This document shows, in pieces, positions 1-33,238 of a DNA stretch of 33,238 nucleotides. The stretch is from assembly GCA_018175035.1 (NCBI GenBank), contig GCA_018175035.1_4099.2; one strand, written 5' to 3'. This stretch comes from a phage. The stretch's first letter is position 1. The number at the start of each line of letters is the position of its first letter. The position numbers and the translations under genes were made by a program. Under the pieces are notes generated by a model. The model had not been told where the DNA came from and searched no databases. It saw only the letters and a program-made list of their open reading frames with translations.

Positions 1-69
1 GTGGAGTACTTTGATGATGGTGATGATAGTATCTATATCGATCTAGATGACGATGACGACGATGAATAA
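1..69 (+). CDS. 3' end of an upstream gene (5'-partial); acidic Asp-rich C-terminus
   Basis: Frame-1 open from window edge to TAA at 67-69 (...DDGDDSIYIDLDDDDDDE*); terminator hairpin follows. Confidence 0.3.
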   Translation: MEYFDDGDDSIYIDLDDDDDDE

Positions 70-74
70 TGTAC

Positions 75-105
75 ATAGCCCGACATAAGTTCGGGCTATT
101 TTTGT
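75..105 (+). terminator. Rho-independent terminator
   Basis: Stem 75-83 / 91-99 (9 bp, core AGCCCGA/TCGGGCT), 7-nt loop, then TTTTT. Confidence 0.6.
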
Positions 106-115
106 AAGGGGATAT

Positions 116-391
116 ATGAATTATAAAGTTCTACAATATACATACAGTGTTTTGTTTGATTTACATCACAATGGAAGATATCTCAATACAATACGAGAAA
201 ACACATTCACTCATACTATCTGGATTAATCACTTAATAATGATACGTGAATATTTTGTTAATAGTGAGATAATCATTCGTGGTAAAAAACAGAAGATAGA
301 ACAAGTTAATAGTTTTGGTGGTAAATTAGTACTATCATTTATAGATAGTAATACTAATGAAAGATATAGTATAGATTTGGTGGACATATGA
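116..391 (+). CDS. Hypothetical small protein, paralog family A (N-terminal xxTYK motif)
   Basis: ATG with AAGGGG SD; N-terminus MNYKVLQYTYSVLFDL resembles neighbouring ORFs. Confidence 0.6.
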   Translation: MNYKVLQYTYSVLFDLHHNGRYLNTIRENTFTHTIWINHLIMIREYFVNSEIIIRGKKQKIEQVNSFGGKLVLSFIDSNTNERYSIDLVDI

Positions 392-654
392 ATTATAAAG
401 ATTTCCTACTAACATACAAGATTATTCGAGATTTAGCACACGACAATGATAGCCCTAGTCTAGAAGACACATGCACTGAAATGATTCATACGATTCGTGG
501 TAAGATTAAAAAAAAATTCAGTACTGTTATTATTGGTGATGACCATGCAGAATTTTCTGATATAATCATTAGACGTGATGGTAAAGTTGAGGTTCAGTAC
601 TACACTGATTTTGGATTTACCAGTATTCCGTTGGAGATATTCCCTTGGGATTAA
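388..654 (+). CDS. Hypothetical small protein, paralog family A
   Basis: ATGA overlap with upstream gene; N-terminus MNYKDFLLTYKIIRDL. Confidence 0.6.
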   Translation: MNYKDFLLTYKIIRDLAHDNDSPSLEDTCTEMIHTIRGKIKKKFSTVIIGDDHAEFSDIIIRRDGKVEVQYYTDFGFTSIPLEIFPWD

Positions 655-956
655 ATTTAAATGATATACAATTCACTTATAAGATCCTATATGATTTGTA
701 TGATGTATACCTTGTTAGTAACAAAATAGGTTCACATAACCCATACAAAGAACAACCATTTATTGATTTATATATTGAGTACTTAGATTCAGTAGGTGAA
801 TATATAAAAAAGAATTACAGTACTTTTATCGACGGAAATGATATATTCGAGTTCTCTGGAGTTAAATCATACAATGGGATTATCCATGTTGAATTTCTTG
901 AAATAACCGATAGGGGATTTATCGAGATTAAAGTTGTGAAGTTGGTGAATTTATAA
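645..956 (+). CDS. Hypothetical small protein, paralog family A
   Basis: TTG start (no in-frame ATG), GGAG 8 nt upstream; N-terminus ...DIQFTYKILYDL. Confidence 0.5.
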   Translation: MGLNLNDIQFTYKILYDLYDVYLVSNKIGSHNPYKEQPFIDLYIEYLDSVGEYIKKNYSTFIDGNDIFEFSGVKSYNGIIHVEFLEITDRGFIEIKVVKLVNL

Positions 957-966
957 GAGGTTACAT

Positions 967-1278
967 ATGTTATTAAATGATATACAATTCACATACAAAT
1001 TTTTGTATATCCAATACGCTACGGTTGATGCTGGAGAATATCTCTACGGTGAAATCTATCGTTCGGTATGGATAAAGTTTTTGGATGAATTACATGAATA
1101 TTACCATGATTTGTGTATAGTTCGTGATAATAAAATATACAAATTCCGCGATATTGTTAGTCATAGCGGTAAGCTACGATTGGAATTAAGTACTGATAGT
1201 GATGTTGATTGGATTGGTGTAAATTTACTGGAGTTGGAGAATGAAAAACAACTTAAAGGAAATACAAGTATTTTATAA
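967..1278 (+). CDS. Hypothetical small protein, paralog family A
   Basis: ATG with AGAGG SD; N-terminus MLLNDIQFTYKFLY. Confidence 0.6.
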   Translation: MLLNDIQFTYKFLYIQYATVDAGEYLYGEIYRSVWIKFLDELHEYYHDLCIVRDNKIYKFRDIVSHSGKLRLELSTDSDVDWIGVNLLELENEKQLKGNTSIL

Positions 1279-1525
1279 ATTCTTATACTTGTCATATGTA
1301 AAAGATGAGTACTATGAAAGTGTGTATTATTTTTTATGGCAACATTACCGTACTATAGTAAGAGATTTATATATAGGAAAATCTATCATATCCAATGGTG
1401 AAAAATGTATATGTACTGATGTTGTTAGTTTTAATGGTTCTTTAACACTGTGTTTCAGATGCGATAATAATAATGGGTCATTTTCATTAAACGTATATCA
1501 GTTAGAAGGAATAAATTTTGAATAA
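1241..1525 (+). CDS. Hypothetical small protein, paralog family A
   Basis: ATG with GGAGTTGGAGA SD; N-terminus ...EIQVFYKFLY, later LYIGKS; overlaps previous ORF by 38 nt. Confidence 0.55.
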   Translation: MKNNLKEIQVFYKFLYLSYVKDEYYESVYYFLWQHYRTIVRDLYIGKSIISNGEKCICTDVVSFNGSLTLCFRCDNNNGSFSLNVYQLEGINFE

Positions 1526-1718
1526 ATGTCCATATTGTAACAGTACTCAATTAGCTCGTTTCCGTTTAGATTCAGACTGGGCGACTGGTGCTGGTGATTT
1601 CTTCCCTATTAATGATGATGCAGAATACACCGAAGAACAGCACAAAGATTTTGATAAATCATGGCGACCTGACATTGAGTGCATTTATTGCCTTAATTGT
1701 GAGCGTGTTCATGACTAA
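1518..1718 (+). CDS. Small zinc-ribbon protein (CxxC...CxxC)
   Basis: TTG start with GAAGGA SD; CPYC near N-terminus and CLNC near C-terminus. Confidence 0.45.
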   Translation: MNKCPYCNSTQLARFRLDSDWATGAGDFFPINDDAEYTEEQHKDFDKSWRPDIECIYCLNCERVHD

Positions 1719-1974
1719 AGCTGAACTAATAGTTCATACATATAAAATGATATCAAGTACTGAGTTATCATATAGTGCAGATAATCCAGTACTAGATTAT
1801 TTTGTTGAATTATTGAAAGAGCATTATATTGGTAAATCACTGATTCTTAATAATATTAATTTCACGGTAAAGGATGTAGCACCTGGAAAAAACGTACTAA
1901 TAGTATGTGTTACTTCATCTGATAACCCAGTATACCCAATATCAATAATTTTTGAGATATTAGGAGATTTATGA
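1711..1974 (+). CDS. Hypothetical small protein, paralog family A
   Basis: Internal ATG 1711 of track ORF 1588..1974 chosen (the longer form would fully overlap the zinc-ribbon ORF); contains HTYK and HYIGKS motifs. Confidence 0.5.
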   Translation: MTKAELIVHTYKMISSTELSYSADNPVLDYFVELLKEHYIGKSLILNNINFTVKDVAPGKNVLIVCVTSSDNPVYPISIIFEILGDL

Positions 1975-2261
1975 ATATCATTTTAATGCAGAAAACATAT
2001 GCTATATTGGTGAAAGATTATTCCATTACTTTCGATTCACAAGAAAGTGCTCTACAGAACCTATACAAAAACGTAACACAAGAATACAGAAATATGTTTT
2101 CTGACTTAGTAGTAGGAAGGTATTTCAGTACTAGAAAATACCCAAAACTTCAAATAGTTGATGTTTCTTTTTATTTCAATGGTCATATTACTATTCATAG
2201 TTTAGACCAAGATTCAACAACGTACTTAAACTTTTCATTTGATGAGGTAACATTTTTATGA
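1971..2261 (+). CDS. Hypothetical small protein, paralog family A
   Basis: ATGA overlap; N-terminus MNIILMQKTYAILVKDY. Confidence 0.6.
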   Translation: MNIILMQKTYAILVKDYSITFDSQESALQNLYKNVTQEYRNMFSDLVVGRYFSTRKYPKLQIVDVSFYFNGHITIHSLDQDSTTYLNFSFDEVTFL

Positions 2262-2431
2262 GAACAGTATTTTTTATCTGGAGTCTTTTTTCATTGGCAG
2301 TACTGACAGTATGTGGGATTTGTTTACTTTCGACAATGAATGTCTGGTACATTAATTTACTATTCCCATTCGTAGGTGTAGGTTTAGGATTTACTTTACA
2401 TAGTGTTTGTAAGGATTTTAATGGCAAATAA
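2258..2431 (+). CDS. Small hydrophobic membrane protein (57 aa, two predicted TM segments); not in ORF track
   Basis: ATG 2258 overlapping upstream stop (ATGA); translation MRTVFFIWSLFSLAVLTVCGICLLSTMNVWYINLLFPFVGVGLGFTLHSVCKDFNGK*. Confidence 0.4.
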   Translation: MRTVFFIWSLFSLAVLTVCGICLLSTMNVWYINLLFPFVGVGLGFTLHSVCKDFNGK

Positions 2432-2705
2432 ATCGAATGAAGTACTTGTTGCTGAAACAATGAAGATGGTTTATGCCATAACAACTAGTAATGATTTGTC
2501 TTACCCAATTAAGTCCAAGTTGAGGGATATAACTCTTCAGGTTATACAGCAGTACTACAAATCTAAACACAAAAGTATTATTAATGTTTATCGTGACTAT
2601 GAAAGGATTCGCATTTTGTTCTGGAACAAGAATCGAGTTCGTTCGGAATGTGATATAGAAAACTTTAAATTTGAGAATCTTTATTGTTACAAAGCGGGAC
2701 AATAG
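2421..2705 (+). CDS. Hypothetical protein
   Basis: First ATG (MANKSNEV...) inside track ORF 2403..2705, which starts at GTG. Confidence 0.5.
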   Translation: MANKSNEVLVAETMKMVYAITTSNDLSYPIKSKLRDITLQVIQQYYKSKHKSIINVYRDYERIRILFWNKNRVRSECDIENFKFENLYCYKAGQ

Positions 2706-2723
2706 CTCAAGTAGTGATATAAT
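2694..2723 (+). promoter_or_regulatory. Sigma70-like promoter with extended -10 (GTGATATAAT), weak -35
   Basis: TGaTATAAT at 2715-2723; -35 position reads CGGGAC; same 10-mer recurs at 11433 and 19136. Confidence 0.35.
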
Positions 2724-2763
2724 ATTGGATGAGGAACAATAACTAACACAAGGAGTGTGTAAA

Positions 2764-3687
2764 GTGCCAAGTAAAAAGCCAGATTCTGAAGTATTCAGAC
2801 TGGTTGATGAAAAATTGAGTTCAATTGGTTCATCGGTAAAAATGGATAGAACAACATACACTACTATATCAAACAAATCAACTTTTTTCTGTGATGAATG
2901 TGGGTTTAGTAAAAATATCATAGTTAGGAATGTGTACAAAAATGGAATATTTTGTCACTGTCCCACATTTAAAACTTTATATAATAAATTGGGTGAAATT
3001 AATTCAAAATTAAAATTAGATATTTCCACATTCACAACTACAAAAAACAAATCTAGATTTTATTGTGACGATTGTGCGTTTGAAAGATATATGACGGTGC
3101 ATGATGTTAAGTCTAGAGGTTCATATTGTAAATGTCATTCATCATATTGTATGCCGTTAGATATCGACGAAGCATATAACACTATTATGAATAAAATAAA
3201 AGATTACTCAAATACAATATATATGGATAAATCTACATACCGTGGTACACAATATAAGGTTAGATTTTATTGTACAGCGTGTAATTTTGACAAATATATT
3301 AATTATAGTAGAGTTAAATGTGGATCTCTTAACTGCAATTGTATCAGACCAATCCCAGAAGAAAGTAAATTATATATTTTAGGAATATATGAACAAAATA
3401 TTTTAATAAAATATAAAGTTGGTATTTCTACAAAGATTGATAAATCAAGACTAATTAGTATTAGGTCAAAAACTAATTTTATAGTAGAGGAATTATATTA
3501 TTTTACTGGAAATACCGAAGTTATTAAAAGTGTAGAATATAATATTTTAAATCTGCTTAAAAATAGTAGTAAATTGCCAAAGGATTATTTTGGTGATGGG
3601 TATACTGAAACATTTGATTTACAAGACATAAATCTTGTTATTGATTATGTATGTAAATGTTTACTCGAAAATAAATTAAAAATATGA
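2764..3687 (+). CDS. Cys-rich protein with three zinc-ribbon-like repeats and a C-terminal T5orf172/GIY-YIG-like domain (tentative)
   Basis: GTG start 8 nt after AGGAG (track start 2755 is also GTG); three repeats of (R)F(F/Y)C(D/T)xC...C(H/K/N)C; C-terminus YILGIY...KVGIS...GDGYTETFDL. Confidence 0.55.
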   Translation: MPSKKPDSEVFRLVDEKLSSIGSSVKMDRTTYTTISNKSTFFCDECGFSKNIIVRNVYKNGIFCHCPTFKTLYNKLGEINSKLKLDISTFTTTKNKSRFYCDDCAFERYMTVHDVKSRGSYCKCHSSYCMPLDIDEAYNTIMNKIKDYSNTIYMDKSTYRGTQYKVRFYCTACNFDKYINYSRVKCGSLNCNCIRPIPEESKLYILGIYEQNILIKYKVGISTKIDKSRLISIRSKTNFIVEELYYFTGNTEVIKSVEYNILNLLKNSSKLPKDYFGDGYTETFDLQDINLVIDYVCKCLLENKLKI

Positions 3688-3712
3688 AAATCATAAACAC
3701 AAGGAATGTGAA

Positions 3713-4441
3713 ATGATAGATAATATAAAATTTGCAACAGAAATGGCGAATCAACTCAATATTGCAAATTTCCAAATGTTAACATCTGTTATGGCTGAAC
3801 ATGCTGCGGCATATTCATCTAGCGGTATACAATGTGGACAAGCTAACATGTTAGCTGATGTTTATAGTGAAGTTCAAAGCAAACAATATAGCGTAAAGAC
3901 ATACAAGGATAAGTTCGTAAGTCTTTATATGAATGAAGATATTTCAGAAGACCGCAAATTCACCGATTTTATTATTGAACGCCGTATTAGTGGGGTTTCA
4001 GACCCAAATGCAGCAAGTGATATTGTATTCGATGAGGTATTAAAAGATATATATGAAAATGAATTGAAAAGTAAGAATCATTACAATGTACGTGAAACTA
4101 ACACAGTGCTAGTTGGATATGATGAAGACGACCAATATTTCTATTTTCGTATAACAGAAGTTCCATTTGAATATAAAAAACCATCCACTACATCGGTAAA
4201 AGAATTCACTGAGAAGAGTAAAAACTTCAAGAAACACGAAGGAAACCGTTGTAGTATTAATGGTTATGATGAAAATGGTGTTCATGTTTATGAATGGGTT
4301 TCACCTAATTGCCAAACATACACTCGTTGCTTGAAAAAACGTTATAATTTAGAAGAGCATGAATCATTCTATTTTAAAGTTAAGAAGCAAGGTTACACTC
4401 GCCCCGCCGATTCTGAATTGATGGGTATGATATATTTCTAA
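3713..4441 (+). CDS. Hypothetical protein
   Basis: ATG with AAGGA SD; 242-aa ORF. Confidence 0.65.
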   Translation: MIDNIKFATEMANQLNIANFQMLTSVMAEHAAAYSSSGIQCGQANMLADVYSEVQSKQYSVKTYKDKFVSLYMNEDISEDRKFTDFIIERRISGVSDPNAASDIVFDEVLKDIYENELKSKNHYNVRETNTVLVGYDEDDQYFYFRITEVPFEYKKPSTTSVKEFTEKSKNFKKHEGNRCSINGYDENGVHVYEWVSPNCQTYTRCLKKRYNLEEHESFYFKVKKQGYTRPADSELMGMIYF

Positions 4442-4451
4442 GGAAACTTCT

Positions 4452-4733
4452 ATGGATTTTTATCTACACACATGGACATACGAACAATATATTACATTAT
4501 ATCTTGAAATTATTAACACAGAACCTAGGTGTGGTTGTTGGTTCGCAGATATCATAAAAGAGTATGCTGACGAGTTCGAGTTTGTGTATCTTGGGTCTGA
4601 TATATTTGTAAAAAGTGTAGGTAAAACCGGACGAATCACTGATATAGATTACGACACTGTTAGTGTGAATTTCTATGTTGATTTTCCTGATGCTGGCGTT
4701 GATGGTGTATATTGTCTATATGAAATAATTTAA
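4452..4733 (+). CDS. Hypothetical protein
   Basis: ATG with AGGAAA SD; followed by terminator. Confidence 0.6.
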   Translation: MDFYLHTWTYEQYITLYLEIINTEPRCGCWFADIIKEYADEFEFVYLGSDIFVKSVGKTGRITDIDYDTVSVNFYVDFPDAGVDGVYCLYEII

Positions 4734-4740
4734 ATTTTAA

Positions 4741-4764
4741 GGCCAGCGTTTGCTGGTCTTTTTT
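4741..4764 (+). terminator. Rho-independent terminator
   Basis: Stem GGCCAGC / GCTGGTC (7 bp incl. one G-U), loop GTTT, then TTTTTT. Confidence 0.6.
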
Positions 4765-4777
4765 CGCAGGTACAAAG

Positions 4778-5080
4778 ATGCTCAGTATAGATTTAATTAA
4801 CAGTACTATCAAAATGTTGGCTGATTTGGTGAGACAATCAAATGGAACTTTATATTCTGCAATGTATAAAATGTTTGACCGATATATCAAGGATTGTAAC
4901 ATATCATTATATGGACTTGCTGTTGATATAGACGATTACTATGGAATTAATACTTCATATAAAACAGGAATTTTAATTGGTATTAATATAAAGATGGGGT
5001 ATTTCCCTTATTACTGTATAGGATTACCAGATAATACTTTGGTAGAATATCCAGCCAGTACTATTAAATTAAGAGGATAA
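4778..5080 (+). CDS. Hypothetical protein
   Basis: ATG ORF, 100 aa. Confidence 0.5.
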   Translation: MLSIDLINSTIKMLADLVRQSNGTLYSAMYKMFDRYIKDCNISLYGLAVDIDDYYGINTSYKTGILIGINIKMGYFPYYCIGLPDNTLVEYPASTIKLRG

Positions 5081-5087
5081 AACTAAA

Positions 5088-5666
5088 ATGAATGTATTAG
5101 AATTAAGTACTAAGCTGATTAGTATGCGTAATGAGTGGTACGATTGGTTTTATAATGGTACTGATATGGATTTTTCAAAATATCCATTTATGGAATCAGG
5201 ATGTGATGCAAGATACCGCTGGTTGAGCAAAGATTGTTCTGGTTTACATATTCTAGTTGACGATAGTGGTCAGGGAATTATAAAAGATTTACTTCAAGTT
5301 GAACAACTCGTCCATGATAATTGGTGTGATAACGATCCATACCTTGGAAATATGATTTATGTAAGTGAAGATGATTGCATATTCGTTATCCAGCGTCATG
5401 GTAATTCTATGTTTTATGTAGCAGACAGCAGTACTCCAGAAGGTGCAGCAGCCGATGGTCTTATGCCTAAGATTGATATATTGGAATTTGGATTACCTGA
5501 GCACTTCCAGATTAGTACTTTATACGATATTCCACCACTTGAGTTCTTTGAAGAATTTAAATTGTACTACAATGATCTTCAAAAATTGAGTACTGATCGA
5601 CGCATTGAAATAACTGTTAAGTACATGGACGGAACGAAATTAACTGATACGGGGATAGAATTTTGA
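5088..5666 (+). CDS. Hypothetical protein
   Basis: ATG with AAGAGGA SD; 192 aa. Confidence 0.65.
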   Translation: MNVLELSTKLISMRNEWYDWFYNGTDMDFSKYPFMESGCDARYRWLSKDCSGLHILVDDSGQGIIKDLLQVEQLVHDNWCDNDPYLGNMIYVSEDDCIFVIQRHGNSMFYVADSSTPEGAAADGLMPKIDILEFGLPEHFQISTLYDIPPLEFFEEFKLYYNDLQKLSTDRRIEITVKYMDGTKLTDTGIEF

Positions 5667-6352
5667 TTAAAGATTTAGATAGAATTTTATATGTACTAAG
5701 GGGTGTAATTACATTACATCCACAAATCAATCGAATTGAAAGTACATTTCAGTTGGAGTCAAGAGAAACTCCATATTCACATATATCAAATGTAGTTGGT
5801 TCACTCAGTACTGAAGACTCGCCTTACGATATTTGTGTATGTGAAGTACAACCAAGTTCGGATCTTGGATTTGCTATTTTTGATAAAAATCAAAATCTCA
5901 TTAGTATGTTTCAGTGCAATAATCCTTTTTGGAAAACATGCCTGTATCCAGAGTGGGCGATGCTTGATCCAACCAAGAGTACCATTAAAGTTTATGACTC
6001 TAAAAATGATGAAGTCGTTATTGATTTGGATGAGTCAATGTCAGAGGAAGAACACTTTCAGCTAATGATGATGCGTGCTATGCCTGAGTACAATGCAATG
6101 ATTAACACTGTGCAATACATTAAGGATACTATGCCATCATTGCGTACACATGAGTTTTGTCATCCTGTATTGTATGAACATTTGGATTTAGATTTCAGTA
6201 CTATTAAATTTAAAGATAGTGTTATTAGATATATCCAAGAGGTTACTAAATTTGATTTTATTAGTACTATGAACAATAATCCAAAAACTAATTTTAGGCA
6301 TCAGTACAATGAATCTTTGTCCGGTGGACGCGATACAAGTTGGTGGAAATAA
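5663..6352 (+). CDS. Hypothetical protein
   Basis: TTG start overlapping upstream stop, GGGGA SD 8 nt upstream; 229 aa. Confidence 0.55.
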   Translation: MIKDLDRILYVLRGVITLHPQINRIESTFQLESRETPYSHISNVVGSLSTEDSPYDICVCEVQPSSDLGFAIFDKNQNLISMFQCNNPFWKTCLYPEWAMLDPTKSTIKVYDSKNDEVVIDLDESMSEEEHFQLMMMRAMPEYNAMINTVQYIKDTMPSLRTHEFCHPVLYEHLDLDFSTIKFKDSVIRYIQEVTKFDFISTMNNNPKTNFRHQYNESLSGGRDTSWWK

Positions 6353-6353
6353 T

Positions 6354-6617
6354 ATGAATATTAAAGATAGATTACAATTACTATACACTATTGAACAGGC
6401 TGCTTTTGAACTTGTTAATAAAATCTCCGAAGAACTTCCCAAAGGAACTATAGTTCGTGTAATTGAGAGGGATTATGAATCTGGAGAAATTGAAGAACTA
6501 GTACTAACCGTGAATAAAGTAACATACTATGAATCTGAGTTGGCTATCCAATGTATATCGGAAGATGGTAAAATATACTATTATGACACTGGTGTAGATA
6601 TAGAGGTAATAAAATGA
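6354..6617 (+). CDS. Hypothetical small protein
   Basis: ATG 6354 directly after upstream TAA, GGTGGAAA upstream; track start 6309 would overlap upstream gene by 44 nt. Confidence 0.5.
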   Translation: MNIKDRLQLLYTIEQAAFELVNKISEELPKGTIVRVIERDYESGEIEELVLTVNKVTYYESELAIQCISEDGKIYYYDTGVDIEVIK

Positions 6618-7756: not shown

Positions 7757-7786
7757 TACTATCTAGCCTAAGCACAAGGAGAAGTG

Positions 7787-8041: not shown

Positions 8042-8050
8042 GGAGTTCAT

Positions 8051-24989: not shown

Positions 24990-24998
24990 GGATTGAAT

Positions 24999-26299: not shown

Positions 26300-26308
26300 G
26301 AGTTTAAC

Positions 26309-26629
26309 ATGTCTTACTCAATGTTTTTGGATGATATTCGTGATGCAAATCTATATTATCCAAACCAAGATATGGTGGTATGTCGTGACTTTAAAAGTGC
26401 ATGTGAATATGTTATTGAAAATGGAATTCCAGCATTTGTATCATTCGACCATGACTTGGGTGATGTGAGCGAAGACGAAAAGACTGGATATTCTTTTGCT
26501 AAGTTTCTTATTGATTATATGTTTGATAATAATATTAAAGAACCGTTTGAGTACTTTGTTCACAGTAGTAATCCTGTTGGTAAAATTAATATTGAAACAT
26601 ACTTAAACAATGGATTTAACTCATTATGA
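26309..26629 (+). CDS. Receiver-like domain protein resembling the cyclic-phosphate-processing receiver (CPR) family (tentative)
   Basis: Pattern FLDDIR...SFDHDLG...TGY...HSSNPVG matches my recollection of this family; AGGAG SD 8 nt upstream. Confidence 0.45.
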   Translation: MSYSMFLDDIRDANLYYPNQDMVVCRDFKSACEYVIENGIPAFVSFDHDLGDVSEDEKTGYSFAKFLIDYMFDNNIKEPFEYFVHSSNPVGKINIETYLNNGFNSL

Positions 26630-26928
26630 TTCAAACACACATCAAAAGTCTTATTTGTACTGTTCTGTTAGGTGCAGGAGTTCTTTGGTTCGGACAGTAT
26701 CACGAGAACACTAAGCGTACCAACATTCACTACAATACCGCAGAAGTTGTTAGTTTAGGACAATGTAGCGAGTCCAAATGTTCATTTATGTATAAAACCC
26801 AAAGTGGTGAAGTACGTAATGGACTATCAAGAGAACCAGTTTCAATTGGTCAACTTGTTTACCAGGAGTGCTGGGAAGAAAAGGTTCGAGGTTCACGTTG
26901 CTATGTTGAATACGAACCAAATATGTAA
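26626..26928 (+). CDS. Membrane-anchored / exported Cys-containing small protein
   Basis: ATGA overlap; N-terminal hydrophobic helix; four Cys. Confidence 0.5.
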   Translation: MIQTHIKSLICTVLLGAGVLWFGQYHENTKRTNIHYNTAEVVSLGQCSESKCSFMYKTQSGEVRNGLSREPVSIGQLVYQECWEEKVRGSRCYVEYEPNM

Positions 26929-26952
26929 TAATCCGAGTCAATAACATTAGTC

Positions 26953-26985
26953 GAGTACAAGGATGTACTCATAACTCAAGGATGT
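26953..26985 (+). promoter_or_regulatory. Hairpin plus 9-bp direct repeat CAAGGATGT overlapping the PhoH ribosome-binding site
   Basis: Stem GAGTACA / TGTACTC with loop AGGA (26953-26970); CAAGGATGT at 26958-26966 and 26977-26985, second copy carries the SD. Confidence 0.3.
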
Positions 26986-26988
26986 TTT

Positions 26989-28428
26989 ATGAAAAAATAT
27001 ACAATTGACACAAACGTACTACTATCTGACCCTAATGCATCTATTGCTTTTGATGGTGCTGCAATCATTCTACCATTTACAGTACTGGAAGAATTGGATT
27101 CAATTAAGAGTCGTAATGTAGATGTTTCACGCGATGCTCGTGTTGCTATTCGTAACATTGAAGCAATTATTGCAGATGCATCACATGATGAGATTAGTAG
27201 TACTGGTGTTAATATTGCTGATGTTCATACCAATATGAATCCTGATAGCAAATTGTTTGTTATTACAAACGAAGAAGCTGAAGCACTAATTCGTACTAAA
27301 GGTTCAGAAGAGAAAGTTCAAACCCTTCTCAAAAGCACAGTACCTGATGATAAAATCATTCTGGTAGCTTTAGCAACAGAATCAGTACTGGTAACTCGTG
27401 ATATCAACATGCGTATCAAAGCACTAAGTTATGGTGTCGAGGTACAAGATTATCGCCATGATATTGTTATTGGTGATAGTGATTTGATTCACATTGGTCA
27501 ACACCATTTGGAAATTAATTTTTGGGAAGTATATAGCAACTTATCCAATACTAATATTCAATCCGAACAAGTTGGTCGTCGTTTGTATCATTACATTTCT
27601 AAAAGCTTGATTGAACATTTGCTTCCACAAAATCTATGCATCGGTGATTATCTATATGATGATGCAGACGTATTATTTGTGTACGAAGGTCAATCAGCAA
27701 TTGAGGAAGATGATGGAACACTAACACCAGAAGATATTTTGGTATTCCAAGATATTGGACAATCAGTAGCTTTACGTGCTAAAGTATGGGATATTAAAGC
27801 AAAGAATATCCAACAAGCACTCGCCATCAACAGTATTCTCGATCCTGATGTACATCTAACAGTACTGCTAGGTTCTGCTGGTACTGGTAAAACACTAATT
27901 ACGATTGCTACTGCATTAGAATTAGTACTGGAAAAACGTAAATACGACCGAATCATCTTCTCTAAAACTCAAGACTCACAGTTTGAAGATATTGGTTTCT
28001 TGCCAGGTTCAGAAGCAGAAAAAGTGATTCCATTCTGTGGAGCCGCAATTGACGCGTTAGAGTTTCTTCATAAAGATGATGCTAACCCACAAGGTAGTAT
28101 TGAAGAGATTATGAAACGTAATGTTATTCAATTTAAAGCACTAAACTTTGTACGTGGACGTTCATTCACCAACACTATTCTAGTAGTTGATGAATTCCAA
28201 AACATTACACCTGCACAAGCCAAAACAATCTTGACACGAGCAGGATTAAACTGTAAAGTAGTAATTATGGGTAACTTGAGTCAGATTGACAGTAAGTTTA
28301 TTAGTCCTGTTAACAGTGGTTTGACATATGTAACTGAGAAGTTTAAAGATTGGGCAGGTTGTCGTGTCATCGAACTAGAAGGTGTTGTTCGTTCACCACT
28401 TGCAGAATTTGCTGAAGAAAATATGTAA
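26989..28428 (+). CDS. phoH: PIN-domain PhoH-like ATPase (PhoH2/YlaK-type)
   Basis: N-terminal PIN-like region (YTIDTNVLLSDP...LEELD); Walker A GSAGTGKT, Walker B VVDEFQN; 479 aa. Confidence 0.85.
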   Translation: MKKYTIDTNVLLSDPNASIAFDGAAIILPFTVLEELDSIKSRNVDVSRDARVAIRNIEAIIADASHDEISSTGVNIADVHTNMNPDSKLFVITNEEAEALIRTKGSEEKVQTLLKSTVPDDKIILVALATESVLVTRDINMRIKALSYGVEVQDYRHDIVIGDSDLIHIGQHHLEINFWEVYSNLSNTNIQSEQVGRRLYHYISKSLIEHLLPQNLCIGDYLYDDADVLFVYEGQSAIEEDDGTLTPEDILVFQDIGQSVALRAKVWDIKAKNIQQALAINSILDPDVHLTVLLGSAGTGKTLITIATALELVLEKRKYDRIIFSKTQDSQFEDIGFLPGSEAEKVIPFCGAAIDALEFLHKDDANPQGSIEEIMKRNVIQFKALNFVRGRSFTNTILVVDEFQNITPAQAKTILTRAGLNCKVVIMGNLSQIDSKFISPVNSGLTYVTEKFKDWAGCRVIELEGVVRSPLAEFAEENM

Positions 28429-28431
28429 TAT

Positions 28432-28465
28432 TGTATGGGACATTATGTCCCATACATGATATAAT
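28432..28465 (+). promoter_or_regulatory. 25-bp near-perfect palindrome (12-bp arms) overlapping a promoter with extended -10
   Basis: Arms 28432-28443 / 28445-28456 (TGTATGGGACAT-T-ATGTCCCATACA); TGaTATAAT 28457-28465; -35 position GGGACA inside the palindrome. Confidence 0.4.
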
Positions 28466-28496
28466 GTTGTTATCATAATACAGAAGGAGATATAAA

Positions 28497-28685
28497 ATGG
28501 CTAAACAACCTAAGAAAAAAGAACCAGTAGCAAAAGTTAAGAAAGAGAAAGTTATTCAATCTAAAGAACAACGTATGTACGAACAACGTAAGAGTGAAAC
28601 CCTATCCGGTCTTCAAGCTCTACGCAAACAAGGTGTACTAACTCGTGCACAGTACCGTGAACTAGTAGCTCAGAAAGGTTTTTGA
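28497..28685 (+). CDS. Small basic protein with SHOCT-like C-terminus (tentative)
   Basis: AGGAGA SD; Lys-rich N-terminus; C-terminus LSGLQALRKQGVLTRAQYRELVAQ. Confidence 0.5.
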   Translation: MAKQPKKKEPVAKVKKEKVIQSKEQRMYEQRKSETLSGLQALRKQGVLTRAQYRELVAQKGF

Positions 28686-28704
28686 TTCATTTGAAGACAT
28701 ATTG

Positions 28705-28769
28705 TGGAGTTCTTAATAAATACTTTTATAAGAATAATAATACTTTTTATTAAATTAAAAAGAACTCCA
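28705..28769. repeat. 10-bp inverted repeat flanking a 45-nt A+T-rich segment with short direct repeats
   Basis: TGGAGTTCTT (28705-28714) / AAGAACTCCA (28760-28769); internal ATACTTTTAT and ATACTTTTTAT. Confidence 0.3.
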
Positions 28770-28788
28770 TGTGTTATTTCAGTTTTTC

Positions 28789-28816
28789 GTCCCTGTCTTT
28801 TGGCAGGGATTTTTTA
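28789..28816 (+). terminator. Rho-independent terminator
   Basis: Stem TCCCTG / CAGGGA, 8-nt loop, then TTTTTT. Confidence 0.6.
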
Positions 28817-28911
28817 TATCTATATCTTGACAAAAGGAACAAATCATGAGAACATGTATTAAAGGAAGAATGACTTTCCATTAGGTTATTTTAACTTAAA
28901 GGAGATTTCAT

Positions 28912-29469
28912 ATGTTTTTTGACCAAACATTTACGTTGTATCACGATTCTGGTAAAGTTGAGATTATTGATAATCTGTTAGAGTACATTGCGGAACATGA
29001 CGGTATAGACCGTTTCCACAGTAAGATGAAATTCGATTTAGCTGAATTCAACAAAAAGAATCGTGAAACATTTTGGAAGAACCGTTTCTATTACGAAATG
29101 TTTCCAGAAAAGTTTGTGGGTTATTATCTTTGTACTGAAAAAGGATTACTTGTATCTCCTGATTTACTTATGGGTGAATACATGATACTCTATAATGAGT
29201 ACTGGGAACATAAACGTAAAGCTCGTGATACGGAATGGCGACATAAGCGTTCGTATATGTACAAACATAACCACTCCCGATACAAGCGTCCTAAGACACA
29301 ACAAGAGCGTCGTATGGCTTGTGCAGTACTGAAGGATGAGGGGGAACCTGATATACGTGGAAGACGTAAGATGCGTTCATTACCATCGTATTGGGACGAT
29401 ATCAGAACAAGACATAGTACTGGCTGGAAATACAGTACTAAACGTAAACATCAATACAAAGGGAGCTAA
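28912..29469 (+). CDS. Hypothetical protein with Arg/Lys-rich C-terminal half
   Basis: AAGGAG SD; 185 aa. Confidence 0.6.
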   Translation: MFFDQTFTLYHDSGKVEIIDNLLEYIAEHDGIDRFHSKMKFDLAEFNKKNRETFWKNRFYYEMFPEKFVGYYLCTEKGLLVSPDLLMGEYMILYNEYWEHKRKARDTEWRHKRSYMYKHNHSRYKRPKTQQERRMACAVLKDEGEPDIRGRRKMRSLPSYWDDIRTRHSTGWKYSTKRKHQYKGS

Positions 29470-29496
29470 TGCTCCCTAATTTTATAGGTGAACTTT

Positions 29497-29826
29497 ATGA
29501 ACAAAATTGACGTTACTGTAGTGATTGGTTATATTGAAATTGAACCGTGTGGCATTGATACCTTTATTGACACTCTTAATAAGTATCGTGCTGAATATAA
29601 CGGTCACATTAGTCTTTCACCAGACAGTGGTTACGGCGGTTTTCATGGATACAATGTAATTTGGACCAGAGAAGAAACTGACGAAGAATATAATACACGA
29701 ATTGAAGCTGAATCTAAAAGATGTGAAGAAATTGAACGTCAAGAAATGAAACACTTAATGAACAAGAAATCATTAAGTACCGAAGAGAAATCTAAACTGC
29801 TAAAATACATCAAGGATTACATGTAA
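29497..29826 (+). CDS. Hypothetical protein
   Basis: ATG 29497 (MNKIDV...), GGTG 6 nt upstream; track start 29488 is GTG; small hairpin GGGAGC-TAAT-GCTCCC at 29461-29476 precedes. Confidence 0.5.
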   Translation: MNKIDVTVVIGYIEIEPCGIDTFIDTLNKYRAEYNGHISLSPDSGYGGFHGYNVIWTREETDEEYNTRIEAESKRCEEIERQEMKHLMNKKSLSTEEKSKLLKYIKDYM

Positions 29827-30476
29827 TGAAAAATGTAACTCAAGAAAAGATTCTGTACCTTGCAAAGTACAATGGTGGTTTCAATATCATTAGCCGTGAG
29901 TACAGTGGTAATTTGGCTAAGTTGATTGACAGTTTGTTAGAATTTGATTTCATTAAATGGGAAACTAATGAACTTTGGTACGAATATGCTGGTCAGAAAT
30001 GGGAAAGTGATTATGATAATGCAATACATTCATACACTATCACCAAAGCAGGTGAAGTTCGATTAGCCATTATGCGTTGTGCATATACTTACAAAAATCA
30101 TAAAGGTGAAGAAAAACATATTCGCAGAAATGAAGAGCTATTACTTCTCATGGAAGCAGCAAAAGTTACAATGCATGATTTGTTCCACCACCCACGTTGG
30201 TATGAAAATCTAACAAAAGCAGAGTACAAAGCTTTACGTTACATTGATGAACAAAACAACACCCCAGTTGAAGTTGATGATGTTAGTGATGATGAACTAA
30301 GCCTCAAAAATGTATTTGAAAGTACCAGTACTGAAAGTATTACAGACATTTCTGTACAGATGGCACTAAAAGCAATGGAACTTTTCAAGACACAATATGA
30401 AGGACACAGTGCTGAAGAAGTAGAGCGTGAGTTTATTACTCGTGTACAAATTGCGTTACATAAAAATAAAAAGTAG
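29826..30476 (+). CDS. Hypothetical protein
   Basis: TAATG overlap; 216 aa. Confidence 0.6.
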   Translation: MKNVTQEKILYLAKYNGGFNIISREYSGNLAKLIDSLLEFDFIKWETNELWYEYAGQKWESDYDNAIHSYTITKAGEVRLAIMRCAYTYKNHKGEEKHIRRNEELLLLMEAAKVTMHDLFHHPRWYENLTKAEYKALRYIDEQNNTPVEVDDVSDDELSLKNVFESTSTESITDISVQMALKAMELFKTQYEGHSAEEVEREFITRVQIALHKNKK

Positions 30477-30482
30477 GTTCAT

Positions 30483-30662
30483 ATGAAAATTTTACTTGTA
30501 CTAATAGCAGTAGTTATGGTATTATCTTGTTCAGTTAGTAATGGTAAGTACATTTACATGTCTGCTTTCGAAGAAGCACCGACAAACTGTGTACAAACTC
30601 ATTCAGGTATTATGCTAATTAATGGAAGACCTTCAATTGAATACTTATGTATAGGGGATTAA
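30483..30662 (+). CDS. Small exported protein, possible lipoprotein (59 aa); not in ORF track
   Basis: MKILLVLIAVVMVLSC... hydrophobic signal with Cys at position 16 (imperfect lipobox VLSC). Confidence 0.4.
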   Translation: MKILLVLIAVVMVLSCSVSNGKYIYMSAFEEAPTNCVQTHSGIMLINGRPSIEYLCIGD

Positions 30663-30665
30663 AAT

Positions 30666-30896
30666 ATGAAATTATTGTGTATTGCTATTGTTTCTTCTAT
30701 TGTATTTCTAAGTGGGTGTGCTCCTAAATTTGATGAGATGGATGCTGAAATTATCCGACAAGGTTTAACAAAACTAAATCACGAAGGAACACTTTATGCA
30801 TGTCATACTATGCGTCATGGTCAAGATCTGAACTTAATGTGTAGAAAGATTGTGAATCGCAAACGTCTTAATACTGTTCCGAAGGATGCACAATGA
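30666..30896 (+). CDS. Predicted lipoprotein (76 aa)
   Basis: Signal peptide with canonical lipobox LSGC (MKLLCIAIVSSIVFLSGCAP...). Confidence 0.55.
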   Translation: MKLLCIAIVSSIVFLSGCAPKFDEMDAEIIRQGLTKLNHEGTLYACHTMRHGQDLNLMCRKIVNRKRLNTVPKDAQ

Positions 30897-31063
30897 AAGA
30901 AGTAATTGGCTACAAATGTAAAAACTGCGGGAAAGATAAAGGAAAACATTCTATTCAAGGTCTGGCCTGCCCAAATCCAGGACGTGGTAACTTCAGAGGT
31001 TTCAGTACTGAAAAGTCGTATGAACCTGATAATACGAAACCTGTCATGGGCTACAAACTATGA
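30893..31063 (+). CDS. Small zinc-ribbon-like protein (56 aa); not in ORF track
   Basis: ATGA overlap at both ends; MKEVIGYKCKNCGKDKGKHSIQGLACPNPG... Confidence 0.4.
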   Translation: MKEVIGYKCKNCGKDKGKHSIQGLACPNPGRGNFRGFSTEKSYEPDNTKPVMGYKL

Positions 31064-31419
31064 GTGATTATGTTGCATTCCTATACCGATTTGGTGTTGC
31101 ACAAGAAAAGCACATTATCCGTATGCCAGCATATGGTGAGAAAGGATGGTATAAGAGTATTATTAGTGTAGGTGCATTTCGTGACCGCGAAGCAGAATAC
31201 TTCCTTAAAAGTCTCAATAATGAACCTATTCGCTTCTCGCTCCAGTGTTTATCAGAATGGGAGGCAAGTAATAAAATCACAGCAGAATCAATGCAAGCTG
31301 TATGTGGCATTCAAAATTATGTCCATCCATATGACAATCTTCCTTGCACTGTGCATAATTCAGTGTTTGACTTTTACAAAGCAGTAGGGTATGATTATAA
31401 AAAGAAACGTTATGTTTAG
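31060..31419 (+). CDS. Hypothetical protein
   Basis: ATGA overlap; 119 aa. Confidence 0.55.
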   Translation: MSDYVAFLYRFGVAQEKHIIRMPAYGEKGWYKSIISVGAFRDREAEYFLKSLNNEPIRFSLQCLSEWEASNKITAESMQAVCGIQNYVHPYDNLPCTVHNSVFDFYKAVGYDYKKKRYV

Positions 31420-31423
31420 CATT

Positions 31424-31451
31424 AGTACTGCCACAGTGGGCGGTACTTTTT
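31424..31451 (+). terminator. Rho-independent terminator
   Basis: Stem AGTACTGCC / GGCGGTACT (9 bp, one G-U), 6-nt loop, then TTTTT. Confidence 0.6.
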
Positions 31452-31464
31452 AATTGGGGATAAT

Positions 31465-32079
31465 ATGACAACATCTGAAAAGTACTGGTGGATTTTGGGT
31501 CATCCTAAATTCATAAACAAAGATATGGTTCCAGCTAGGATTGATATAGAACCTCATGATGTGTGTCCAATGACAAATCGAATTGAAGATTTCAAAGCAT
31601 TGAATACAAAGACTCAATTTTGGGTAGAATTTCTTTCACCAATGTATATTGAGCAAGACGACGAATGGGTACAAGCACATGATTATCAATTGGATTGTGG
31701 TGGTGATACGTATGAAGAGGCCATTGATGAATTATACAAAAATGTGCTAAGAACATATGGTGATTACACCCAACAAGAAGCGGACGATGAATTTAATAAG
31801 ATCCATGTAGCTATTTCGACATCATCAATTTATAATCCCACTAAAACAGTTTGGGAGGAACGACACAGTTGGTGTTCATGTGTAATCGATGAAGAAACCA
31901 AAGAAAAAATCATCGATGACATAAAAAATTTAAAAAATACAATCCAAGCCTTGCGTGCATTCATAAAGTCTTGTACAATAGAAGAACAGCAAGAGGCAAA
32001 GATACATTTGGAGAGTGAAGAATGTAAACTTTGGGTTCTAGAAAAATCACTTGAAAAGGGTATAGACTTAGACTTATGA
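31465..32079 (+). CDS. Hypothetical protein (acidic, 204 aa)
   Basis: ATG with GGGGA SD. Confidence 0.6.
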   Translation: MTTSEKYWWILGHPKFINKDMVPARIDIEPHDVCPMTNRIEDFKALNTKTQFWVEFLSPMYIEQDDEWVQAHDYQLDCGGDTYEEAIDELYKNVLRTYGDYTQQEADDEFNKIHVAISTSSIYNPTKTVWEERHSWCSCVIDEETKEKIIDDIKNLKNTIQALRAFIKSCTIEEQQEAKIHLESEECKLWVLEKSLEKGIDLDL

Positions 32080-32444
32080 ATAGTAAATTGGAGAAACTTG
32101 TTGAAGAATTACGCCGGATGCCACCTATTGAGCAAGTAGGGAACTACAAGCGGTATCGTGTGATTGCTCGTGCACTGGATAAAAAAGGTCGAGTACTGGC
32201 AACTCGCACAAATTCTTATACACAGACTCACCCAGTACAGAAGGGTTTCGCCATTCGTGCTGGGCGACCGCAAGGTGAGTTTCTTCATGCTGAAATTTCA
32301 TGTTTACTGGCTGCTCGTGCTGATGTTCATACTTTACTGATTGCACGGATAAGTAAAGATGGAATTCCTGTTCCGGCTAAACCATGTGAAATTTGCTCAT
32401 TAGCAATAAAAGAATATGGGGTGAAAGAGATTATCCACACATGA
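32076..32444 (+). CDS. Small zinc-dependent deaminase-fold protein (CDA / dCMP-deaminase / TadA-like), second deaminase in the window
   Basis: HAEISCL and PCEICSLAI about 30 residues apart; N-terminal YRVIARALDKKGRVLATRTN like the deaminase substrate-loop region; ATGA overlap. Confidence 0.65.
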   Translation: MNSKLEKLVEELRRMPPIEQVGNYKRYRVIARALDKKGRVLATRTNSYTQTHPVQKGFAIRAGRPQGEFLHAEISCLLAARADVHTLLIARISKDGIPVPAKPCEICSLAIKEYGVKEIIHT

Positions 32445-32662
32445 AAATTGAAAGATATGCTAAGCATACTGTTGGGTGTGTAAATGATATATTCTATTAT
32501 TATATTTTTGCACCTGAACTACGTTTTCAAATCACAACATACAATGATGGCAGATTTAAAGATACAAACTTCCTCATAACCGACTTAGCAAAGTATGCGA
32601 ATACAGAACATTTTAATCATTTAGTATTTGTGTACTGTATACCAAACCCAAATAAAAAGTAG
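32441..32662 (+). CDS. Hypothetical small protein
   Basis: ATG 32441 overlapping deaminase stop (ATGA), chosen inside track ORF 32393..32662. Confidence 0.4.
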   Translation: MKIERYAKHTVGCVNDIFYYYIFAPELRFQITTYNDGRFKDTNFLITDLAKYANTEHFNHLVFVYCIPNPNKK

Positions 32663-32672
32663 GAGATTAAAA

Positions 32673-33032
32673 ATGGCTAAAACAATTTCTTTAAAAAATG
32701 AAAATGTAGGACAACGCAAAGATGGTTTCTTTGGTTTTTCTTGGACAACATTATTCTTTGGACCGTTCCCTGCATTGTTTCGTGGTGACTTTATTACGTT
32801 CATCGGTGCATTCGTAATTTACTTCATCCTCAACGCAGTGTCATTTTGGATTGTGGGTACAATTGCAATGGTTGTATGGGCATTTCTTTATAATAAGTAC
32901 TACACCGTGAATCTCATCAAGAATGGGTATAAATTCAATGGCACACATGAAGAAAATGCTGAAGCTGCAATGGCTTTGCAAATTGATTTGAATAAAAACA
33001 ACACAGTTGATAAAAATAAAGATCCTGAATAA
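32673..33032 (+). CDS. Membrane protein with DUF2628-like motif (tentative)
   Basis: ATG 32673 after AGGAG SD; GFSWTTLFFGPFPALFRGDF followed by hydrophobic helices. Confidence 0.5.
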   Translation: MAKTISLKNENVGQRKDGFFGFSWTTLFFGPFPALFRGDFITFIGAFVIYFILNAVSFWIVGTIAMVVWAFLYNKYYTVNLIKNGYKFNGTHEENAEAAMALQIDLNKNNTVDKNKDPE

Positions 33033-33238
33033 ATGGAAAAATATGACATAATTTACGATTATTATGGTAAGGCTTATATGAAGTGTGGGCGTTATGTTGA
33101 ACTCTCTAATAGAGAATCAATAGATCCCCACACTCTTATAACAATTCATAATTCGTACTATAAAAAAGTTACAATAGCTAATTTCGCTACATACGTGAAT
33201 AATCCATTATTTCCTTACATTATTCAGTACTACTGTAG
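33033..33238 (+). CDS. Hypothetical protein, 5' end only (runs off window)
   Basis: ATG directly after upstream TAA; open to window end. Confidence 0.35.
   Translation, partial: MEKYDIIYDYYGKAYMKCGRYVELSNRESIDPHTLITIHNSYYKKVTIANFATYVNNPLFPYIIQYYC

Follow-up and report, generated by a model that had tools for sequence, protein, structure and literature searches.

A symmetric AGTACT word packed into the genomes of RaK2-like jumbo phages as a candidate mark of phage DNA

Why does a phage genome carry one palindromic hexamer at many times the frequency expected by chance? The question is raised by the word AGTACT in a 33,238-nucleotide stretch of phage DNA (contig GCA_018175035.1_4099.2 of GenBank assembly GCA_018175035.1), the whole of which is referred to here as the window. 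The window derives from an Asteriusvirus: it shares 97-98% identity with Asteriusvirus genomes of the PBECO4/121Q group, whose members, among them PBECO4, 121Q, phAPEC6, Sharanji, and the SD phages, are jumbo myoviruses of Escherichia coli and Salmonella with genomes of ~350 kb. It corresponds to 57.6-90.8 kb, minus strand, of PBECO4, and the 348-kb genome of that phage served as the reference for genome-wide counts. The observations presented below show that AGTACT is a real, DNA-level, and symmetric word that is selected site by site, extends across the clade of RaK2-like phages, is nearly absent from a sample of host DNA, and occurs in early promoters.

An exact count gives 96 copies of AGTACT in the window, or one per 346 bp, and 22 copies of the 8-bp palindrome CAGTACTG, close to the ~90 hexamers (about one per 350 bp) and ~20 octamers estimated in an initial annotation of this DNA. 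In 100 shuffles of the window that preserved dinucleotides, 9.35 +/- 2.9 hexamers (maximum 16) and 0.61 +/- 0.76 octamers were obtained, in agreement with the ~10 and fewer than one that had been anticipated, while Markov models of orders 0, 1, 2, and 3 predicted 11.1, 9.1, 16.9, and 31.7 hexamers, respectively, and 0.3-2.1 octamers. Shuffling of synonymous codons, which keeps all proteins and codon usage, yielded 28.0 +/- 4.0 copies (maximum 39), and shuffling of codon order 22.0 +/- 3.3. AGTACT shows the largest deviation among all 4096 hexamers of the window and is its sole enriched palindrome, the runner-up standing at 1.9-fold. The initial annotation had held that a ratio near one under a higher-order Markov model would speak against enrichment, and such a ratio does appear at order 4 (expected 82.7, ratio 1.16); that model is circular and provides no independent null because it is conditioned on AGTAC and GTACT, which are themselves nearly all derived from the motif, and enrichment is seen at orders 0-3. 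A longer repeated element, the other ground for doubt named there, was not found: no repeat family of at least 16 nt carries the motif, except for chance seeds. The copies are spaced nearly as in a Poisson process (coefficient of variation, 0.93) and occupy all reading frames, with 37 read as AGT-ACT (Ser-Thr), 19 as nAG-TAC-Tnn, 32 as nnA-GTA-CTn, and 8 outside called open reading frames (ORFs). The earlier statement that the signal resides in the DNA rather than in codon or amino acid bias is thus borne out by the use of three frames and by the protein-preserving shuffles, and equally by the symmetric flanks and the bent proteome described below.

The same signal pervades the rest of the genome. 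PBECO4 carries 891 copies of AGTACT, 2.56 per kb, against ~100 expected (~9-fold, z ~79), making it the top hexamer by far, together with 191 copies of CAGTACTG (3-24 expected) and 15 of the perfect 12-mer TTCAGTACTGAA (0.04-0.44 expected). Of 1699 positions where synonymous codons would permit the word, 754 (44%) realize it, and this fraction is fairly even along the genome (0.26-0.61 per 10-kb bin). Ser-Thr pairs are encoded as AGT-ACT in 363 of 708 cases (51%), where codon usage predicts 104. The proteome itself is bent toward motif-compatible peptides: Ser-Thr occurs at 1.44-fold but the reverse Thr-Ser at 1.01-fold, Val-Leu at 1.35-fold but Leu-Val at 0.96-fold, and [KQE]-Tyr-[FLSYCW] at 1.44-fold but its reverse at 0.92-fold. 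These flat reversed-peptide controls, with the 96 copies of the window against 28 when proteins are kept, dispose of codon or amino acid bias as the source, and the genome holds the word at close to the highest density that the proteins permit. Its density peaks at 45-67 copies per 10 kb at 130-160 kb. Much of this peak probably lies in the direct terminal repeat, placed here at roughly 131-152 kb of PBECO4, limits extrapolated from the ends of longer records that seem to include the repeat. Another record annotates its terminal repeat over a segment matching PBECO4 140-141.5 kb, and the terminal repeat of Sharanji measures 20.7 kb (PMC11895373).

To follow the word beyond PBECO4, a clade sample comprised 121Q, JNE01, EJP2, Salmonella phage Munch, Klebsiella phage KP13-7, Pectobacterium phage CBB, XbC2, and one Erwinia Eneladusvirus; Vibrio phage 2.275.O and PA5oct (the latter sampled at 206.6-228.7 kb), which come next in relatedness as judged by DNA polymerase (52% and 39% identity, respectively), served as outgroups, and 50 kb of E. 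coli K-12 as the host sample. AGTACT sites of the window are kept more often than the background of all hexamers in 121Q (92% versus 80%), JNE01 (69% versus 30%, at 78% identity in aligned parts), and EJP2 (54% versus 18%), with gains and losses in balance. Enrichment of 10-14-fold is found in every RaK2-like genus sampled (Asteriusvirus, Alcyoneusvirus, Mimasvirus, and Eneladusvirus) as well as in Salmonella phage Munch and XbC2. None is seen in Vibrio phage 2.275.O (4 copies, 6.7 expected) or in the PA5oct sample (3 copies, 7.4 expected), and a general trait of AT-rich jumbo phages can be dismissed, given that both outgroups have a similar GC content. The E. coli sample holds 3 copies, or 0.06 per kb, a contrast of ~43-fold with PBECO4. 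The initial annotation had suggested positive selection and had proposed the remainder of the genome and related phages as a check; site conservation at 2-3 times background and clade-wide enrichment accord with that suggestion, and are read here as positive or purifying selection.

What is selected has the anatomy of two half-sites. In a logo of the flanks, T (-3), T (-2), and C (-1) precede the hexamer and G (+1), A (+2), and A (+3) follow it, each at ~40-50%, giving the symmetric extended consensus TTCAGTACTGAA, and information ends at +/-3. C occupies -1 in 47 of 94 sites and G occupies +1 in 45 of 94, and the two are statistically independent (22 octamers observed, 22.5 expected), which fits two half-sites rather than selection for hairpins; hairpin or cruciform selection is ruled out by this independence. 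In PBECO4, single changes at inner positions abolish the enrichment of the hexamer (~1-2-fold) while variants at outer positions retain 2.4-6.9-fold, indicating that the fully specified part is a compact central hexamer. The single-orientation pentamers AGTAC and GTACT are enriched 1.4-2.4-fold versus 9-fold for the palindrome. Neighbors of AGTACT that differ by one base are not depleted, all but one standing at 1.2-2.2-fold, which argues against conversion of the kind carried out by very short patch (VSP) repair and for a balance of selection and mutation. VSP-type biased repair, as at CCWGG in E. coli, is rejected on the same evidence, the deamination neighbors AATACT/AGTATT standing at 1.22-fold.

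A minority of copies hold fixed positions in early promoters. In PBECO4 the layout is AAAAGTAC-TTGCAA/TTGACA-N8-9-AGTACT-(G/T)-TATAAT: an upstream AGTACT abuts or overlaps the -35 element (AGTAC-TTGCAA or TTGACA), and a second copy, 20-22 bp away, takes up the 3' part of the spacer, a single base separating it from the -10 element. AGTACT-N-TATAAT occurs 19 times and AGTACTTGCA 26 times, and distances between sites peak genome-wide at 20-23 bp, about two helical turns. The same architecture recurs in the Erwinia Eneladusvirus, a phage with a ligase of only 61% identity, and the window has a single example. Judged by sequence, the fixed position relative to -35 and -10 and its conservation between genera would make these copies, ~45 of 891 (~5%), an element of sigma70 early promoters. 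The paper on CBB describes RpoD-like, divergent (TGAAACG), and late (ATAAATA) promoters, and AGTACT is not among them. The promoter of the window is a sigma70-type TTGACT-N17-TATTAT at 23176..23204 (plus strand), in which AGTACT, at 23192-23197, takes up the 3' part of the spacer and leaves a single base ahead of -10; a weaker, promoter-like TTTAAA-N16-TATTAT at 24755..24782 (plus strand), a consensus match only, has AGTACT at 24769-24774 in the spacer, two bases before -10. At 132-158 kb of PBECO4, where GC content (0.37-0.38) exceeds that of the rest of the genome, early promoters are directly followed by a GC hairpin (e.g., GGGGAGAAATGATTCTCCCC) and lie between very small ORFs. In the PeSL cassettes of T4-type phages, likewise, sigma70 early promoters are followed by a GC hairpin between tiny ORFs, and we know of no PeSL with an AGTACT pair; the arrangement is the same in the terminal-repeat region of PBECO4, but only ~5% of AGTACT sites are found in it. 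As a separate observation on promoters, TAAATA and TATTTA are the most under-represented hexamers of PBECO4 (TATAAATA occurs 7 times, 30-43 expected), as would be expected if fortuitous T4-type late promoters were selected against; the phage encodes a gp55-like late sigma factor.

One region departs from the rule. At 116.6-124.3 kb of PBECO4 (7.7 kb), AGTACT is absent and TGTACT occurs 44 times (3.7 expected), so that the coding strand reads AGTACA. This island has sharp borders, is conserved in 121Q and ph0011 (75% identity), and uses T in 44 of at most 47 copies of GTACT; its sites are conserved at 50% versus a background of 30% and show no interconversion with AGTACT. The usual flanks are kept on both sides, those of the mutated half included (+1 G in 21 of 47, +3 A in 23 of 47). 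The island form of the consensus TTCAGTACTGAA is TTCTGTACTGAA. Since the change is always from A.T to T.A, the island requires either a second reading specificity or an enzyme that acts on the outer adenine. A second, weaker island, of reversed polarity, is found at 127.0-132.6 kb, a distance of 2.7 kb from the first, and the two share one direction of transcription. The Erwinia Eneladusvirus sample showed no sharp island, and GC skew at the 7.7-kb island, considered as a clue to an origin, showed nothing beyond gene orientation.

Other words are biased downward. GCGC is missing from the whole of PBECO4 (150-290 expected), from the window, and from every RaK2-like locus sampled, in comparison to 6.8 per kb in the E. 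coli sample and 23-29 per 22 kb in the outgroup phages; among the loci sampled, its absence co-occurs exactly with AGTACT enrichment. The initial annotation had remarked that an enriched palindrome runs contrary to the usual depletion of palindromes in phages, and that depletion is extreme here: 23 of 64 palindromic hexamers have a count of zero in PBECO4 (e.g., CCATGG 0 versus 46, TGGCCA 0 versus 43, GGTACC 0 versus 32), and 28 are missing from the window alone. Zero counts extend to words like type IIS sites (GGTCTC/GAGACC, CTCCTC/GAGGAG, and CAGCTC/GAGCTG), while GAATTC, GATATC, CACGTG, and GTGCAC are not avoided and GATC is depleted, at 0.61. Restriction-site avoidance resembles the present case in that it is also a genome-wide selection on palindromic hexamers, but AGTACT has the opposite sign and is the sole palindrome driven upward. 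In the PA5oct sample, CTGCA/TGCAG show a 4-fold excess (56 and 46 versus 14-15) and CTGCAG occurs 13 times versus 2.4, which may represent an analogous but weaker word or a codon effect.

We tentatively propose that AGTACT is a selected self-recognition word that is read by a phage-encoded protein of two-fold symmetry and that acts as an operator at early promoters. Under this proposal, a clade-conserved protein, probably a dimer, would read AGTACT on double-stranded DNA; the copies within genes, which number in the hundreds, would set phage DNA apart from that of the host by marking or coating it; and the phased pairs around -35 and the spacer would be operators gating early transcription, most simply by shutting it off. 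There are precedents for phages that mark their own DNA, since in Bacillus phage SPO1 (TF1) and in T4 (hydroxymethylcytosine and Alc) a mark is used to bind or single out that DNA and to turn off early or host transcription. Those marks are the modified bases hydroxymethyluracil and hydroxymethylcytosine; here the mark would be a sequence word, and only methylation has been reported, in RaK2. The reader could also be coupled to methylation, in a private Dam/SeqA-like system using an adenine methyltransferase of the Dam family (PF05869). Such a version, which we hold to be unlikely, is possible because the clade has an enzyme of this family of its own. In the Dam/GATC system with SeqA and MutH, a short palindrome is both a methylation site and a binding site, and paired sites on one face of the helix sequester promoters after replication; the AGTACT pairs 20-23 bp apart at early promoters and the methyltransferase gene, both known from the genome sequences, would be the counterparts. 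The parallel is an analogy, and it differs in that GATC itself is depleted here; GATC is, to our knowledge, not enriched in E. coli.

Several points weigh against the proposed reader. No helix-turn-helix protein, and no reader, emerged among the candidates scanned with Pfam, and the proteins beside the phage sigma factor, considered as candidate regulators, gave no Pfam matches; the WGR-domain protein gp086 was rejected as a reader, its region being replaced in the phage of the window. Full specification of the central hexamer, combined with weaker preferences in the outer flanks, is more reminiscent of a restriction or modification enzyme than of a typical dimeric transcription factor, and an island of TGTACT alone with both flanks kept demands the second specificity or outer-adenine enzyme mentioned above. 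Approximately 850 intragenic sites would titrate a repressor, and binding, repression, and methylation are all proposals drawn from sequence.

Some of these points favor another explanation, in which AGTACT is mainly the target of a phage DNA methyltransferase, as an epigenetic mark against restriction or as a label, and no protein is dedicated to binding it. Contiguous 6-bp palindromes are classical targets of restriction-modification, and AGTACT is a site of the ScaI/Eco255I type. The PF05869 methyltransferase of the clade is its own (~52 records at 60% identity or above, then less than 40% outside the clade), and a C5 methyltransferase is also encoded. The gene for the former lies at 92465-92986 of PBECO4, ~1.6 kb beyond the left end of the window, where it adjoins a cytidylyltransferase, and synteny is kept in 121Q and EJP2. 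Its specificity could be obtained neither from the PDB, which yielded no solved homolog, nor from NCBIfam or the literature found, but the family members T1, HP1, and VT2 Dam, which we take to be GATC enzymes, count against an AGTACT specificity. RaK2 DNA was reported to behave as methylated, the enzymes that cut it being only those that Dam, Dcm, CpG, or EcoKI methylation does not block (PMC3622015), and host Dam could account for the GATC part of this behavior. The island would suit a methyltransferase in that swapping only the outer A.T for T.A removes one target adenine and leaves the flanks intact. Yet protection needs no extra sites, and a surplus of them would carry a cost whenever modification was incomplete; flank preferences that reach +/-3 are rare among methyltransferases; and the fixed positions in promoter cores go unexplained without a reader. 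A cognate endonuclease of the ScaI/Eco255I type is not annotated in PBECO4, where gp306 was the one annotated "endonuclease" to be checked. A methyltransferase target without a reader is unlikely, if the likeliest of the alternatives.

Less likely again is a processing site, at which a phage endonuclease would nick or cut, a type II topoisomerase would act (A|GTAC|T, with a 4-bp stagger), or recombination-dependent replication or clamp loading would gain entry. The specificity is compact and palindromic, and saturation at even density is what a site of which "more is better" would show. Suitable proteins are encoded, namely a T4-type topoisomerase II, endonuclease VII, gp46/47-like proteins, and several HNH or GIY-YIG-like nucleases, and at a one-sided island nicking would be confined to one strand. 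Nicks placed symmetrically in a palindrome, in contrast, would break the genome, and nicks are not reported in the literature found on these phages. Among the annotated endonucleases, gp306 was the one put to the test; it proved to be a homing-type gene of sporadic occurrence, present at 99% identity or above in PBECO4 alone, and was therefore discarded as a clade-wide enzyme. Placement in promoter cores is not explained by processing.

A third explanation, which we consider improbable, treats the palindrome as the cheapest means of displaying a pentamer, AGTAC/GTACT, in both orientations: a polar signal like Chi, recognized on a single strand, for a translocating helicase-nuclease or motor. 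Phage DNA would thereby be spared, and host DNA, in which the word is lacking, would be degraded. The ~43-fold contrast with the host sample, the saturating and evenly spread density, and an island in which the word has a single orientation, close to a weaker one of reversed polarity, would all be expected of such a signal. GCGC is wholly excluded from the phage and occurs at 6.8 per kb in the host sample, so that discrimination of self from host by words is possible in principle. Chi (GCTGGTGG), the DNA uptake sequences and uptake signal sequences (DUS/USS), and the FtsK-orienting polar sequences (KOPS) are, like AGTACT, short selected words that occur far above chance and across coding DNA and that distinguish one genome from foreign DNA. 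Unlike AGTACT, they are asymmetric, often strand-skewed, bacterial, and 10-100 times sparser, whereas AGTACT is a palindrome in a phage, realizes 44% of its synonymous opportunities, and sits in promoter cores. The main word lacks polarity altogether, which is confined to the 7.7-kb island. There, the flanks of the mutated half are still selected, which implies that this half is still being read, and T is used almost throughout rather than any base other than A. Additionally, the pentamers in single orientation are far less enriched than the palindrome, and no cognate enzyme is known.

A signal at the level of RNA, in which self-complementary AGUACU would mediate pairing between copies or serve as a site for mRNA cleavage or processing, is very improbable. 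Nearly all genes are co-oriented, so that every site is transcribed, and the motif is found in two terminator hairpins. Symmetric flanks are unexpected for an RNA signal, the fixed-position sites lie upstream of transcription starts and inside promoters, the two islands have opposite polarity under the same direction of transcription, and the independence of the flanks shows that longer stems are not selected.

An array bound by a host protein, whether SlmA or a TrpR-like reader of GTACT, is still harder to credit. The SlmA-binding site (SBS), GTGAGTACTCAC, has a core identical to AGTACT (PMC3020112), and SlmA binding would explain filamentation: Sharanji infection filaments cells with no division inhibitor identified, while DNA fills the cell without a phage nucleus (PMC11895373). 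The SBS is a 12-bp palindrome that needs G1, T2, a purine at 3, A4, G5, and a pyrimidine at 6 (PMC3020112). The phage flanks are instead T/T/C, with G at -3 in only 7 of 94 sites, and PBECO4 has 1 match to GTNAGTACTNAC and 4 to GAGTACTC versus 191 to CAGTACTG; with the essential flanks missing, SlmA binding or titration was rejected. The arrays of SlmA and Noc resemble that described here in being 12-14-bp palindromes bound by dimers at many chromosomal sites, but they comprise 24-70 sites versus ~900, with other essential flanks, and the SlmA determinants G1 and R3 are avoided here. The only prokaryotic match to TTCAGTACTGAA found in literature searches is motif-finder output for promoters regulated by TrpR.

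Absence of function, with the word as a by-product of mutation bias, VSP-like repair acting on near-sites, a bias in codon pairs, or a spreading repeat, can draw on the order-4 ratio, but it is comparably implausible in view of the circularity of that model, the undepleted neighbors, the protein-preserving shuffles, the asymmetric peptide-order controls, the lack of a longer repeat carrying the motif, and the lack of enrichment in outgroups of similar GC content. A dispersed repeat in particular (repetitive extragenic palindrome, miniature inverted-repeat transposable element, or promoter cassette) was rejected, as the flanks carry no information beyond +/-3, the word is absent from repeat families of 16 nt or longer other than as chance seeds, and promoter cassettes hold so few of the copies.

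In the window itself, the array spans 1..33238 and, being palindromic, has no strand; the genes over which it runs are small and co-oriented, belong to the early/middle region, and include those for RNA ligase, polynucleotide kinase, DNA ligase, ClpP-like proteases, dCMP deaminase, Sir2, Nudix, and PhoH proteins. AGTACT starts at 5, 328, 520, 596, 778, 819, 1189, 1308, 1542, 1756, 1788, 2127, 2299, 2441, 2551, 4802, 5057, 5106, 5430, 5514, 5589, 5807, 6197, 6263, 6500, 6944, 7019, 7241, 7493, 7755, 7937, 8691, 9441, 9958, 10084, 10215, 10584, 11139, 11546, 11876, 11888, 12660, 12801, 13551, 13923, 14199, 14568, 14612, 14735, 14997, 15452, 15622, 16185, 16350, 16574, 16743, 17058, 17593, 17683, 17740, 17812, 17828, 18591, 18972, 20055, 20194, 20684, 21247, 21529, 21896, 22210, 22394, 22605, 23192, 23600, 24575, 24769, 25589, 25934, 26550, 27081, 27199, 27384, 27861, 27924, 29198, 29325, 29416, 29434, 30327, 31004, 31424, 31481, 32192, 32896, and 33226. 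The 22 copies of CAGTACTG (519..31010) start at 519, 2298, 5806, 7492, 9957, 10583, 14734, 15621, 16349, 17057, 17592, 20193, 20683, 21528, 23599, 25588, 27080, 27383, 27860, 29324, 30326, and 31003. Six are part of the 10-bp palindrome TCAGTACTGA (5805..5814, with further starts at 7491, 10582, 17056, 20192, and 31002), and the perfect 12-bp consensus palindrome TTCAGTACTGAA occurs at 17055..17066, within the DNA ligase gene, and at 31001..31012. Close pairs, measured from start to start, are found at 11876..11893 (12 bp), 17812/17828 (16 bp), and 29416/29434 (18 bp).

Intrinsic terminator hairpins, in which a GC-rich stem and T-run follow a gene, account for only 2 of the 96 copies. The initial annotation had placed the motif at the tips of both. 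This is correct for the terminator-like perfect palindrome AGGAATCCAGTACTGGATTCCT with its T-run at 20676..20697 (plus strand), where AGTACT forms the loop or tip; in the hairpin AGTACTGCC-ACAGTG-GGCGGTACT followed by TTTTT at 31424..31447 (plus strand), it lies at the base of the 5' arm. The longest stretch free of AGTACT, 2557..4801 (2.25 kb), is statistically weak as a gap (P ~0.0015 for one gap, ~0.14 over all gaps). It contains a 921-bp segment without counterpart in PBECO4 (2768-3688; GC content 0.26; no AGTACT), with an ORF of 310 amino acids rich in cysteine through repeated Cys-x2-Cys motifs, possibly a mobile gene of the homing-endonuclease type. Smaller segments that do not align to PBECO4 lie at 8269-8852, 22951-23149, and 30486-30705, the last standing in place of the WGR-domain gene of PBECO4.

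The Chi octamer GCTGGTGG occurs 7 times on one strand of PBECO4 and 15 times on the other (~1-8 expected per strand). Nine of the 15 fall between 133.8 and 152.8 kb, inside the inferred terminal repeat or at its margin, and close pairs of opposite orientation are found at 145.8 and 152.85 kb; the window has Chi at 6698 and 14622. Such clustering could protect the genome ends against RecBCD.

The initial annotation had not recognized AGTACT as a known phage signal, and the literature is consistent with this: no mention of AGTACT, CAGTACTG, or ScaI was found in work on PBECO4, 121Q, phAPEC6, Sharanji, CBB, RaK2, or PA5oct, in a comparative review of jumbo phages, or in full-text searches. As far as these searches show, it is undescribed as a phage signal, and it belongs with the selected genome-wide recognition words. 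At ~9 times chance, it is among the strongest oligonucleotide signals known to the authors in any phage, and it implies an abundant sequence-specific reader or enzyme central to the biology of these phages, whether in early-gene control, marking, protection, or processing. The word is also a handle for finding the reader protein, as an oligonucleotide suffices for a pull-down and one restriction enzyme for a test of modification. Phages of this clade are under development against E. coli, Klebsiella, Salmonella, and Erwinia, and ~900 sites of the ScaI/Eco255I type represent either a vulnerability or a sign of protective modification.

The proposal of a self-recognition word read by a symmetric phage protein can be carried further, to a doubtful possibility: that RaK2-like phages tell their own DNA from that of the host solely by words, with AGTACT as a positive mark, GCGC as a negative mark, and a dedicated reader, and with the TGTACT dialect programming polar behavior in the 7.7-kb region that adjoins the terminal repeat. 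If this is true, factors of the phage could direct repression, coating, or replication to its own DNA, or leave that DNA unharmed, while host DNA came under attack, and a virus would possess a sequence-encoded system of self and non-self strong enough to reshape its codon choice and its proteins. The excess of AGTACT, the absence of GCGC, and the 23 absent palindromes together show selection sculpting a large phage genome at the level of words.

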